From positions 1 through 64,000 of the forward strand of contig CBDCWP010000033.1 of NCBI GenBank assembly GCA_965223505.1: 64,000 nucleotides of DNA, written 5' to 3'. This stretch comes from Planctomycetota bacterium. Lineage in GTDB: Bacteria; Planctomycetota; PLA2; JAEUHO01. Positions 51,101-54,100 of the stretch are shown here, piece by piece (position 1 is the first letter of the stretch; each line of letters opens with the position of its first letter). Made by a program: the position numbers.

Positions 51101-54100
51101 CCGCGCCGCCGGGCAGGACGGGACCTCCCCCCTGGTTGGTCCCGCAAACGAACCTCTGCGCGTTGGAGGCCACCACTGCGCGAGGCTCGCAATGTCACGT
51201 CGTCAAACGAAGAGTTCCGCGTTGCGCGTGCGGTGCAGCTCCCGCAGGCGACGGATCACCTTGCTGTGGATCTGACACACGCGGCTTTCCGTGAGCCGCA
51301 ACATGCCCGCGATCTCGCGCATGGAGAGGCCCTCGAAGTAGTAGTACTGGATGACGGTCTGCTCTTTCTCGTTCAGGTTCTTGAAGAGCAGGTCGCGCAC
51401 GTCGCGGCGCTGCTGCGAGAAGCGCGGATCGTCGCCGTGCTTGTCGCCGAGCAGGTCGATCATCCGGCTGCCCGATCCCTCGCCGTCGTCGCCCGAGTCG
51501 TCCGTCAGCGACAGCACCGACGTGGGCGTGGCTTCCTTGCGGAGCTTCTCGTACTCGGGCATCGTCATCTCGAGCTCGGCCGCCATCTCGGGGTCGGTCG
51601 GCTCGCGGCCCAGCTGGGCGTAGAGCTTGCGAAGCGTCTTGTCGACCATGTTCGTGCGCAAGCGCACCAGACGCGGCACCCAGTCGTTCGTGCGCAGGTT
51701 GTCGAGAATGCTGCCGCGGATGCGCGCCGTGCAGTAGGTCTTGAACTGAATGCCGCGGCTCGTGTCGAAGCGGGCGAGCGCCTCGATCAGGCCGAACGTG
51801 CCCATGCTGATGAGATCGTCGACGTCGACGCTGGCCGGCAGGGTCGTCACCATCCGCTCCGCCAGGTACTTGACCAGGGGGAAATACGCCGCAATGAGCT
51901 GTTGTTTGGCGTCCTCGGACTTCGTCTTGGTGTACTCGTCCCAGAGGTCCTTGTAGTCCGCGTCTCGAATCTTCCGCATGCCTTCGACTCCGTTCGAGCC
52001 GGCTCTGCCGGCCACATCCACCTGTCCCGAATGCCCTGACTTGGAGTCACTGATGCAGGTGGAAAACGGAGGAGGCGATCTGACCCCCCCGGATCACCAT
52101 GGCTTGGTAGCTGGCTGCCACCCGGTAGCACCGGAAGGCCCTCTAGCTTTGCGCCCCTGGCTTTCGCCAGGTTTGCCCGTTCATCCATGTCGCGGGAAAA
52201 CAAAAGAGCTTTGCAACCGCTACGTCGCCCTAGTGAGCCACCCTCCGGCTGCATGGGGAAACCTAGCCCAACTGACGGTCCTGGCCACCGATGTCGAAAA
52301 AAATCTCACTCAAGTTCGAGCGGGTCCACAAAACCCCATCTATTGCGGCTTGTGGACGAGCGCGCGGTACCACTCGGGCCGCCGCTCACGCAAGATGTCG
52401 TTCCCGGACGCGACACGTTTGGTCCGTGCTAGTGCGACGTCGACGTTCGCCGTGACGACCTCGTCGCCGCTCGCCTGCGCTTGCGCCATGCGCTCACCGG
52501 TGACGTCGATGATCTGGCTCGCGCCCGTGAACGCGAGCGCCTTGCGCGGCTCGCGGTGCTCGTCGCCGTACCGATTGGCGGTCGCGGTGTAGACGCGGTT
52601 CTCGATCGAACGAACGCACATGGCACGCTGGCACAACCCGGGAAGCACGAGGTTGCTCGGATGCGCGATGACGTCCGCGCCTTGAAGGGCCAGGGCACGA
52701 GAGGCTTCCGGGAAGATCCAGTCGAAGCAGATCATGACGCCGACGTTCAGCCCGTGGTGCTCGACGACCGGGAACGGACGGTCGCCGGGCTCGAACACCT
52801 CCTGCTCGAAGCCGAACAGGTGGATCTTGCGGTAGCTCGTGAGCGGCTCGCCGTTCGCGACGACCGCCGCGGCGTTGTAGGCCTTCAGCTCGTCGCGCTC
52901 GGGGTACCCGCCCACGATCACGCCCTTGGTCGCCTCGCTCCACCGGACCATGCGTCGAAGCGTCGGGCCGGTCGGGAACGGCTCGGCGAGCTCGAGTGCC
53001 TCGTCGGCGTCGCGGAAGCTGTATCCGGACGCGAAGAGCTCGGGCAGCACGATCAGGTCGGCTTCCACACCCTCGATGAGTGTCTCGACGACGTCGAGGT
53101 TCGCCTCGACCTCCCCGAACCCGGGATTCGTCTGCACGCAGGCGACGGTGTAGTGCGTGGCGGACGCGCTCATGCGTCGAGCGTACCGCGGGCGGCGCGT
53201 GCGAAGCTACTTGCCGTCGCGAGCGGGCCGCTTCTTGCCGTTCTGTCCGTTCGGACCACGGGGCGGCCGGTCCCGCAGCTTGTTGCGCGCGTCGTTCGCG
53301 CGCTGGAGCCCGCGCTGCATGTTGCTGACGAACTCGTCATCGAGCTTCCCGTGCCGCTGTAGGAATGCGAACACCTGTCCTCTGCGGACCCGCCAGTCCT
53401 GTCGCGGCAGGAACACGGGGTAGTGCTCGATCGCCTCCTTCGGCACGCCGAAGCCACGCGTGAGAATTCCGTCGAAGAGCATCTTCGCCTTCTTGTGCAA
53501 CGGCTCGTCGCTCGCGAGCAGCGGCAACGTTCGCTCGAGCTGCATCAACGCGCCGAAGAGCTGCTGCTGCTTCTGCCCGCGCTTCTGATTCGCCTGCAGG
53601 ATCTGCCGGATCTTCTCCGGATCTTCGATGGCGCCGGCCAGGTCGTCTCGTGCCGCGTCGAACGCCTGCGGCCACTGCGCTTGCAGCTTCTGCACGATCA
53701 TCTGTGCATGCGCACCACGGGCCGCTCGATCCGTGGGCTTCTCGAGACGACGAACGAACGCCTCGACGCGCAGGTGCCCGGCCTTACGCCGGATTCCGCG
53801 CTCGAAGCGCTCGCGCTTCTTCGGATCCTGCTCCTCGTCGAGCCGGGCCCGCATCTTCTCGAGGTGCGCTCGCACCCGATCCGGAAGCGCCGTGATCTCC
53901 GCTTCGGTGAGCGCCGTCGCGCCGACGTGCTCCTTGAACCGCTCGAAGACCGCGATCTGGAACGGCAGCAACGGCAGGCCCATCTGCTTGAAGCGGCGGC
54001 GCTGCTCCGCGTCGAGCATGCGTTCGAAGAACACGTGCGAGATGCGAATGAAGTGGGCGCCTTTGCGCGCGCGGGCATCGTCCTTGCGGATCCCCTCGAG

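Follow-up and report, generated by a model that had tools for sequence, protein, structure and literature searches.

A c-di-GMP-I riboswitch preceding a FliA/WhiG-family sigma factor gene in a planctomycete without flagellar genes

The aptamer, the sigma gene and their transcription unit

The window, i.e., the whole stretch of 64,000 nucleotides which was analysed (contig CBDCWP010000033.1 of assembly GCA_965223505.1, from a Planctomycetota bacterium of the family JAEUHO01), contains on its minus strand a c-di-GMP-I aptamer followed by the gene for a sigma factor. The Rfam covariance model RF01051 matched at 52187–52103 in full (model positions 1–87) with 62.0 bits (E 1e-09; gathering score 35 bits), and this was the single match in the whole 5.15-Mb assembly. 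Helix P2 (CCUGGC-GAAA-GCCAGG) is capped by a GNRA tetraloop, P3 was also aligned to the model, and P1 is formed by the strands CAUGG (52185–52189) and CCAUG (52098–52102). Over 20 loci of the family, P1 shows compensatory changes, e.g., GCGCGG/CCGUGC instead of CAUGG/CCAUG; its native pairing was matched in 0 of 20000 permutations and, in a second test, in 0 of 3000, and the P3 strands co-vary within the family as well (0/3000 permutations). In the RF01051 alignment the consensus G before the GCAAA box, the A after GCGC and the 3' CC are all kept, and the G precedes GCAAA in all 31 leaders of the class (JAEUHO01 and its sister family). We take the conserved G, A and C to be the ligand contacts G20, A47 and C92 (Vc2 numbering); the exchange G20A in c-di-GMP-I aptamers causes selectivity for cGAMP. 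Judged by these features, the RNA is a genuine c-di-GMP-I riboswitch aptamer, and binding of c-di-GMP is predicted.

The sigma gene (51203–51979, minus strand) has its ATG at 51979, 123 nt from the 3' end of the aptamer, and its stop at 51203. The ribosome-binding region (51977–52001) comprises GGAG (51991–51988) and the ATG (51979–51977). The protein of 258 amino acids contains the Pfam domains Sigma70_r2 (28–100), r3 (109–169) and r4 (200–247) and has no region 1.1, which is the architecture of group-3 sigma factors. It scored above the cut-off of TIGR02479 (FliA_WhiG; 235.8 vs 189.6 bits) and below that of the WhiG equivalog model NF004935 (241.4 vs 343 bits); the best relatives with solved structures were 6pfv and 6pfj (E 1e-53). 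Aptamer, gene, spacing, family assignment and the uniqueness of the riboswitch in this genome were thus found as given in the first-pass annotation. A second gene of the FliA/WhiG type, with 41% identity, is present in the same genome (contig C30, 226309–227034); its neighbours are housekeeping genes.

Upstream, a gene for a carbon-nitrogen hydrolase (52340–53173) is closed by a terminator-like hairpin with a T-run (52307–52322, minus strand), which separates it from the sigma transcription unit. The promoter is placed at 52260–52287 (minus strand) by conservation only: in 20 + 11 aligned upstream regions, TGGCC (52287–52283) corresponds to a conserved TTGCC box and TAGGTT (52265–52260) to a conserved GGGCTAGnnT box. 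Both boxes are kept in the two families of the class, mostly about 95–110 nt before the aptamer and 73 nt before it at this locus; a scan called no consensus sigma-70 site. The tetranucleotide CTAG is strongly avoided in the genome, and for this reason a genome-wide count of the boxes is uninterpretable. The 5' leader contains CTCTTTT (52202–52208, minus strand), which belongs to a "TCTTT box" conserved in 20/20 leaders of JAEUHO01 and 11/11 of the sister family, 15–45 nt before the aptamer. Past the sigma gene lies a terminator-like hairpin of 13 pairs, 11 of them G-C (51082–51110, minus strand); therefore, the gene is probably monocistronic. With conserved promoter boxes and terminator-like sites on both sides, it probably forms its own transcription unit, and the leader would have a length of about 275 nt if transcription starts behind the conserved boxes.

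Conservation of the pairing and the clade of linked sigma factors

Exactly one RF01051 match was present in 21 of the 29 genomes of JAEUHO01. An ortholog of the sigma factor (57–80% identity, full length) follows on the same strand, 80–285 nt downstream of the aptamer, at 20 of the 21 loci, whereby the count of loci in the first-pass annotation is extended; at the 21st locus the contig ends 71 nt past the aptamer. Eight genomes of the family contain neither riboswitch nor sigma gene, a joint absence which is trivial, since the two are adjacent. The sister family of the same class (f2) has the pair in 11/11 genomes. The gene 3' of its sigma gene is kept at 10 of 11 loci and belongs to no Pfam family; it is absent from JAEUHO01, including the genome studied here.

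Among 151 sampled genomes of Planctomycetota, at least 26, from at least 11 families, have their best sigma match on a contig where an aptamer lies directly upstream of it and on its strand (the coordinates were matched by hand, and 11 of the first 28 loci were confirmed by tblastn). A metagenome-assembled genome of Ca. Kuenenia also carries the pair. In the 80 best named genome records, an aptamer-like motif was found upstream of the sigma gene on the same strand in 47 cases and on the opposite strand in none; Rfam confirmed all 14 motif-positive loci which were checked and detected an aptamer also at two of six motif-negative ones.

The pairing had been described as belonging to a lineage without flagella. 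The lineage is truly devoid of them: profile searches of the genome (92.5% complete) detected none of the models Flagellin_N, FHIPEP, FliG_C and Flg_bb_rod, and neither CheW nor FlgM, and FHIPEP (FlhA) was above the cut-off in 0/40 genomes of the class, the class-level sample being the same 40 genomes as the order-level sample. Incompleteness of the assembly therefore does not explain the missing flagellar genes. The pairing itself is not special to such cells, however, since 13 of the paired Planctomycetota genomes in the sample of 151 encode FlhA. In one relative, G154, riboswitch and sigma gene are followed by an unknown gene and by fliOPQR-flhBA-flhFG-fliA. Flagellar neighbours are not the rule for the linked sigma gene, as only G154 has them; in 11 other lineages VanZ/DUF3352 or lipoate ligase/RNase PH/LepA are found downstream (the neighbour scan covered the loci other than L205–L213).

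In a tree rooted with four other sigma factors of this genome, 51 linked and 4 unlinked sigma factors formed one clade (UFBoot 99, SH-aLRT 95). All five flagellated genomes tested possess the linked sigma gene and a second FliA_WhiG gene, and in four of the five the second gene adjoins that of FlhA. Identity of the linked sigma factor with flagellar FliA was ruled out by this split and by the coexistence with a FliA on the flhA side. According to tree and gene order, the linked sigma factors are a paralog clade apart from the FliA encoded beside flhA, which shows two sigma-28 lineages in Planctomycetota, one alone being tied to flagellar genes. In the present genome the linked sigma factor occurs without flagellar genes and without FlgM, and in a separate clade, and hence does not pass for a functional flagellar FliA. 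Since the clade is separate and was kept after the loss of flagella, its regulon is probably not, or not only, flagellar.

The first-pass annotation had proposed an RNA-level chain from c-di-GMP over the sigma factor to a whole regulon. Its first part, the link in cis, stands, being conserved and on its own transcription unit. The regulon found no backing: a scan of the whole genome with what we take to be the sigma-28 consensus (TAAA-N15-GCCGATAA-type) yielded 0 strict matches and 7 loose ones vs 5 in the control, i.e., no enrichment, and thus no set of genes that would support a role of the linked sigma factor as a switch. The suggestion that it is the main c-di-GMP output is not supported, as the genome contains 8 matches to PilZ domains and 5 GGDEF genes.

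Expression platform and the sign of the switch

The platform is most readily interpreted in the relatives. At 9 of 11 loci of the sister family and both loci of a further family (f20), a U-run follows a leader hairpin with a stability of −16 to −36 kcal/mol; the 5' half of this hairpin can pair with the P1 3' strand (−12 to −20 kcal/mol), and three-way co-variation is seen at locus L036. As read from these leaders, the platform in both families is a classic P1/anti-terminator/terminator OFF switch. Outside the class, scanning of 16 linked loci for terminators gave 2 clear ones, 2 weak ones and 12 without any.

In JAEUHO01 the leader is built differently. At this locus a first hairpin in the leader (CGGGGGGG/CCUCCUCCG, −12.6 kcal/mol), which has UUUU behind it, occupies 52063–52091 (minus strand), and its 3' half is shared with a segment at 52060–52076 (GCCUCCUCCGUUUUCCA), the predicted partner of the Shine-Dalgarno (SD) region. 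When 45 pairs of segments were screened in the family, only P1, P3 and the leader-by-SD pair gave 0/3000 permutations. The early leader paired better with the SD window of its own locus than with that of other loci (means −25.3 vs −19.8 kcal/mol; 0/20000 permutations), and a further test of the compensation between anti-SD and SD gave 49/20000. A platform in which the early leader pairs with the Shine-Dalgarno region, with lineage-specific compensation, is supported by these data. The coupling of this helix to P1 is not: no competitor connecting P1 with the leader hairpin was supported, the 5' half of the hairpin giving z = −0.9 when tested with the P1 3' strand, and the P1 5' strand with the early leader gave a weak hint (z = −2.6, 16/3000), non-significant after 45 tests. 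Several other candidates were rejected: a 5' flank extending P1 by pairing with the post-P1 segment ("P0", z = −0.5), pairing of the 5' flank with the coding sequence or with the SD, both unsupported in permutation tests, and an intrinsic terminator, as UUUU follows the hairpin only at this locus of the family and a consensus scan made no call.

Equilibrium folding predicted a mostly paired SD with or without the aptamer enforced; over the loci of JAEUHO01 the SD-free fraction ranged from 0.00 to 0.66 and its shift was inconsistent, the values at this locus being 0.29 with the aptamer enforced vs 0.18 without. The terminator probability in the sister family and f20 was the same in both states (0.82–0.99). 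Since neither SD access nor terminator formation differs between the states, such calculations carry no information on a switch that works kinetically.

We consider it likely that the c-di-GMP-I riboswitch in the leader of about 275 nt acts in cis on a monocistronic mRNA for a sigma factor of a separate clade, with a translational readout and an OFF sign in JAEUHO01. The segment just past the aptamer would pair with the Shine-Dalgarno region, and a local leader hairpin could capture this anti-SD segment instead. Ligand binding would close P1, and with P1 closed the anti-SD segment should be available to mask the ribosome-binding site; high c-di-GMP would then result in less sigma factor. The OFF sign is favoured mainly because the relatives (sister family and f20) have the readable P1/anti-terminator/terminator design. 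It is thus probable that c-di-GMP determines, at the sigma mRNA itself, how much of a regulon-wide switch is present.

The sign could perhaps be the opposite. Hairpin and SD helix are mutually exclusive, as the 3' half of the hairpin overlaps the anti-SD segment; if closed P1 caused the hairpin at 52091–52067 to capture this segment, the ribosome-binding site would be freed and c-di-GMP would raise the amount of sigma factor. The hairpin also occupies the place of the ligand-favoured terminator hairpin of the sister family, and, if homologous and formed with ligand, would free the SD; the slightly higher SD-free fraction with the aptamer enforced at this locus points in the same direction. Yet this shift is inconsistent over the 20 loci of the family, no pairing between the 5' half of the hairpin and the P1 3' strand is supported, and the sign read in the sister family and f20 would be inverted, so that we regard an ON switch as unlikely.

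A different objection would be that the aptamer RNA works mainly on its own, either as a short leader RNA released by termination or as a sponge for c-di-GMP, the position before the sigma gene being of little consequence. The UUUU after the leader hairpin at this locus could be interpreted in this manner, and for the merRNA of Bdellovibrio, a non-coding RNA bearing a riboswitch, a function as c-di-GMP reservoir is proposed (PMC3627812). Against it, the aptamer is linked on the same strand to one sigma clade over at least 11 families, the expression platforms are lineage-specific with compensated pairing to the SD of the sigma gene itself, and there appears to be no promoter-like conserved box between aptamer and gene, as far as the alignment, which covered the upstream side, indicates; this explanation is very improbable. 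Hardly more is to be expected from the notion that another ligand is sensed, e.g., 3'3'-cGAMP or that of a variant class. For the sigma leaders of some relatives (L131, L132, L138, L155) the best-scoring model is RF03167, the c-di-GMP-I-GGC variant, but at this locus RF01051 is the best model of the clan, the consensus G, A and 3' CC are kept, and 5 GGDEF proteins are encoded in the genome.

Significance and comparison with known systems

The usual targets of riboswitches are genes for enzymes, transporters or surface proteins. With a riboswitch for a second messenger placed directly on a sigma gene, one RNA sensor would gain control over a whole regulon, and the pairing looks as if it had been kept for seemingly the whole history of the phylum. 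Full-text searches of the literature found no description of the pairing. To our knowledge, almost nothing is known about regulation in Planctomycetota, including the anammox bacteria, and the pairing offers a concrete handle on the readout of c-di-GMP in these organisms. It also raises the question of the role of a "flagellar-type" sigma factor in cells without flagella. A tentative and rather doubtful answer would be that the linked clade has since ancient times acted throughout the phylum as a master regulator gated by c-di-GMP, which governs the switch in life-style or cell cycle of planctomycetes beside and independently of the flagellar FliA. If true, the alternative between dispersing daughter cell and attached mother cell would be under the control of c-di-GMP, the survival of the linked sigma factor after the loss of flagella would be explained, and an RNA-level counterpart of RsiG-WhiG of Streptomyces would have been found.

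The architecture of the aptamer is like that of Vc2 of Vibrio cholerae and other members of RF01051, which have P1, P2 with a GNRA tetraloop, and P3; the class of the downstream gene is different. Another close system is Cd1, a c-di-GMP-I riboswitch of the OFF type in the 5' UTR of the flgB operon of Clostridioides difficile, which includes sigD. The aptamer class is common to both; a sigma-28-family factor would come under c-di-GMP in either case, and the leader control favoured here would likewise be of the OFF type. The likeness is extended by relative G154, where riboswitch and sigma gene stand in a row with fliOPQR-flhBA-flhFG-fliA. Cd1 precedes a long flagellar operon, whereas the riboswitch here is situated directly on a monocistronic sigma gene; the sigma factor is a paralog apart from the FliA of flagellar clusters, in a genome without flagellar genes, and the platform in JAEUHO01 is predicted to be SD sequestration, not a terminator.

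In Streptomyces, the anti-sigma factor RsiG binds c-di-GMP and controls WhiG at the protein level. The parallel drawn in the first-pass annotation is justified as an analogy of wiring and nothing beyond it: c-di-GMP would control a sigma factor of the FliA/WhiG family in a non-flagellated organism, in a setting that is developmental in Streptomyces rather than one of motility, to which we liken the sigma factor described here. The control would be exerted on the sigma mRNA instead of the protein, and the sigma factor remains below the WhiG equivalog model (241 vs 343 bits). A third example is Bdellovibrio bacteriovorus, where FliA is reported to be a global regulator of the attack phase (PMC3627812); a sigma-28-type factor has thus been recruited for a whole phase of the life cycle in a cell which also uses a c-di-GMP riboswitch, although there the riboswitch is contained in a separate non-coding RNA and not in the fliA leader.

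Riboswitch and sigma factor gene

A c-di-GMP-I aptamer was located by cmscan at 52187-52103 (- strand); it covers the full length of RF01051 (model positions 1-87), scores 62.0 bits (gathering score 35) and is the only match in the assembly (5.15 Mb, 44 contigs, 92.5% complete). Its 3' end is separated by 123 nt from the ATG (51979) of an open frame on the - strand, which ends at 51203, carries a GGAG 8 nt before the start and encodes a sigma factor of 258 aa with sigma-70 regions 2, 3 and 4. With 235.8 bits (cut-off 189.6) the protein passed TIGR02479, the model of the FliA/WhiG subfamily; with 241 bits (cut-off 343) it fell below the WhiG equivalog model; the nearest solved structures were 6pfv/6pfj (E 1e-53), followed by the FliA entries 9wsf, 6pmi and 1rp3. 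Thus, a single riboswitch upstream of a FliA/WhiG-type sigma gene, as described in the first-pass annotation, was confirmed. The window contains also two tRNA genes, at 3168-3239 (+; 70.8 bits) and 30111-30183 (+; 73.5 bits).

Exactly one RF01051 match was present in 21 of the 29 genomes of the same family (f1). At 20 of these 21 loci a full-length sigma ortholog (57-80% identity) begins on the same strand 80-285 nt past the aptamer; the remaining locus stops 71 nt after it. In a protein search the same 20 genomes, and no others of f1, had the ortholog, and the 8 genomes without riboswitch contained a paralog of 40-43% identity only, or nothing; since the two elements adjoin, their joint absence is uninformative on function. 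The class comprises one order with 40 genomes. In the sister family (f2) the aptamer stood in front of the ortholog (50-57% identity) in 11/11 genomes, besides 0-2 additional aptamers each. The latter (L033-L044, L024, L032) preceded genes for large PcRGLX-like proteins (4 loci), for Big_7/Kelch proteins (2) and for one HEAT-repeat protein; others stood before a protein weakly matching PilZ and one weakly matching pilin-type N_methyl. A same-strand gene 3' of the sigma gene was kept in 10 of the 11 genomes of f2 (L022:1-543 (-) and 9 other loci); it belongs to no Pfam family, has a hydrophobic N-terminal segment, and no relative of it was found in the window's genome.

Among 151 genomes drawn evenly from Planctomycetota, RF01051 occurred in 62, a close relative of the window's sigma factor (E <= 1e-40) in 124, and the FlhA model FHIPEP over its cut-off in 80. 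In at least 26 genomes among the matches listed, the best sigma match had the aptamer directly in front of it and shared contig and strand with it; this is a lower bound from coordinates paired by hand, with 35 riboswitch and 12 sigma entries lying outside those matches. Six of the linked genomes belong to the window's class and 20, again among the matches listed, to nine families outside it (f13, f20, f24, f43, f44, f47, f55, f61 and f71). Of the 28 loci fetched first, 11 had their linkage to the sigma gene confirmed by tblastn. An aptamer-like motif, which recovers 50 of 51 known linked loci, was detected upstream on the same strand in 47, and on the opposite strand in 0, of the best 80 named genome records; Rfam confirmed an aptamer at 14/14 motif-positive loci tested, including a Ca. 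Kuenenia stuttgartiensis MAG (73 bits), and found one at 2/6 motif-negative loci. The pairing had been proposed for the family, where it holds; this scope was too narrow, the association being broader and older. Four sigma leaders (L131, L132, L138, L155; one Brocadiaceae MAG among the carriers) scored best as c-di-GMP-I-GGC, RF03167, and may possess a changed ligand pocket. Five genomes of another family, f33 (G070, G123, G147, G099, G166), contained 7 to 27 RF01051 copies each, vs 1-5 elsewhere in the sample; f33 seems to be a lineage in which c-di-GMP riboswitches control a large regulon.

Relation to flagella and c-di-GMP signalling

A maximum-likelihood tree (LG+G4) of 82 sigma sequences, rooted with 4 other sigma factors of the window's genome, was constructed; one locus lacking the gene (L021) and a partial second copy in G106 were excluded. 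All 51 riboswitch-linked sigma factors fell into one clade (UFBoot 99 / SH-aLRT 95), whose other 4 members, three of f34 and one of G130, are unlinked. Outside it were 12 FliA genes, chosen for lying within a few kb of flhA, and 14 second paralogs. In addition, each of 5/5 flagellated genomes tested contained two FliA_WhiG genes over the cut-off, of which one was the linked gene and the other adjoined FlhA in 4/5. This clade split and the coexistence of both genes rule out that the linked sigma factor is the flagellar-cluster FliA. The riboswitch-sigma link therefore extends across the phylum and is characteristic of a sigma clade of its own, which coexists with flagellar-cluster FliA and persists after loss of flagella. 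FlhA was found in 13 of the 20 linked genomes outside the class, among the matches listed; the other 7 were not among the FlhA matches. In closed genome G166 the best piece of the FHIPEP (flhA) match at G166:C1:618126-620040 contains 10 TGA, 1 TAG and 6 TAA, and looks like a decaying flagellar gene.

The second paralogs include one of the window's genome (C30:226309-227034, - strand, L113:6217-7293, outside the window; 41% identity to the window's sigma factor), flanked by genes for a diaminopimelate/ornithine-type decarboxylase and a class-II tRNA synthetase. Its orthologs, present in 26/29 genomes of f1, are placed in the tree on the side of flagellar-cluster FliA, though the class is without flagella.

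Profile searches of the window's genome for Flagellin_N, FHIPEP, FliG_C, Flg_bb_rod, CheW and FlgM gave no match; the controls gave matches in the expected reference genomes. FHIPEP exceeded its cut-off in 0/40 genomes of the class, which rules out the 92.5% completeness as the reason for the missing genes, and the earlier description of a lineage without flagella is upheld. The neighbours of linked sigma genes are mostly unrelated housekeeping genes. Only in the flagellated genome G154 (L110, G154:C9:849000-860000) does the order riboswitch - sigma gene - unknown gene - fliOPQR - flhBA - flhF - flhG occur, with canonical fliA following shortly after, an order reminiscent of the C. difficile flgB leader.

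For c-di-GMP signalling, the window's genome contains 5 GGDEF genes and 8 PilZ-domain matches; an EAL domain was not found in it. There were also 8 matches over the cut-off for T2SSE/PilB-type ATPases. The riboswitch is not the sole c-di-GMP receptor in this cell and, because of the 8 PilZ matches, cannot be called its main c-di-GMP output, as had been suggested.

Transcription unit and sign of the switch

One terminator-like site, at 52322-52307 (-), ends the upstream hydrolase gene, and another, at 51110-51082 (-), follows the sigma gene. Alignment of upstream regions of f1 and f2 showed two conserved boxes, TTGCC and GGGCTAGnnT, with a spacer of ~17 nt; their distance to the downstream aptamer is ~95-110 nt at most loci and 73 nt in the window (TGGCC 52287-52283; TAGGTT 52265-52260; -). 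Conservation suggests a putative promoter, which a consensus promoter scan of the window does not call at this site; it would be nearer to the housekeeping than to the sigma-28 type, so that autoregulation is not indicated. A TCTTT box (window 52208-52202, -), invariant in 31/31 leaders of the class, is situated 15-45 nt upstream of the aptamer, often directly past a small hairpin; permutation tests supported no pairing partner for it. Words containing CTAG are strongly under-represented in the genome itself (GGGCTAG[GT] 52 times, vs 815 times in the reversed sequence).

In f2, 9/11 leaders contain a hairpin (-22 to -36 kcal/mol) with a U-run behind it; the other two retain the hairpin with an interrupted U-run. 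Both leaders of f20 have a hairpin of ~-16 kcal/mol, then seven U. The 3' strand of P1, the helix closing the aptamer, together with the next few bases complements the 5' half of the hairpin in both families (-12 to -20 kcal/mol), and at L036 the P1 5' strand, P1 3' strand and terminator 5' half covary three ways. A P1/anti-terminator/terminator layout is the textbook OFF design, and on sequence grounds the f2 and f20 platforms would be of this kind: ligand would close P1, the anti-terminator would be blocked and the terminator would form. In f61 the sole in-frame start lies 14-19 nt past the aptamer, and the implied N-terminal extensions agree with Pfam coordinates; the minimum-free-energy fold pairs the Shine-Dalgarno (SD) sequence with the 5' flank, extending P1, in 2/4 loci, a predicted pairing that would also act as OFF. 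Among the other 14 linked loci scanned outside the class, a weak hairpin-plus-U site was seen in 2 and none in 12.

The f1 leaders have no U-runs, with the sole exception of UUUU in the window. Predicted duplexes pair the early leader with the SD region (mean -25.3 kcal/mol for native, -19.8 for mismatched loci; native value reached in 0/20000 permutations). When 45 segment pairs were screened without bias, 0/3000 was obtained for P1, P3 and leader-by-SD alone; the later leader by SD reached 3/3000. The 3' half of the first hairpin past P1 overlaps the anti-SD segment (52060..52076, -; 49/20000 permutations), and hairpin and SD helix should thus be mutually exclusive. Coupling to P1 was not detected in f1 permutation tests, neither for 5' flank vs post-P1 segment (z = -0.5) nor for P1 3' strand vs hairpin 5' half (z = -0.9); the P1 5' strand matched the early leader weakly and in a lineage-specific manner (16/3000; not significant over 45 tests), and at equilibrium the aptamer made no difference to SD accessibility in f1. 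If the sign is conserved between the sister families, the window would have an OFF switch, by which high c-di-GMP would lower the sigma factor. This sign is the favoured one, though short of certain; the opposite, an ON switch raising it, appears less likely.

Regulon and known systems

A whole-genome scan with the sigma-28 promoter consensus gave 0 strict hits, and 7 loose ones vs 5 in the control. Full-text literature searches, outside subscription journals and supplementary files, yielded no description of a c-di-GMP riboswitch on a sigma-28-type gene, nor of any in Planctomycetota or anammox bacteria. The wiring of riboswitch to sigma factor is genuine and strongly conserved. Among the closest known systems is that of C. 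difficile, where the Cd1 riboswitch precedes the flgB operon, which contains sigD. Another is RsiG-WhiG of Streptomyces, with 6pfv/6pfj as the structural relatives found. A third is Bdellovibrio, where, as reported (PMC3627812), FliA runs the attack phase and the riboswitch sits in a separate RNA.
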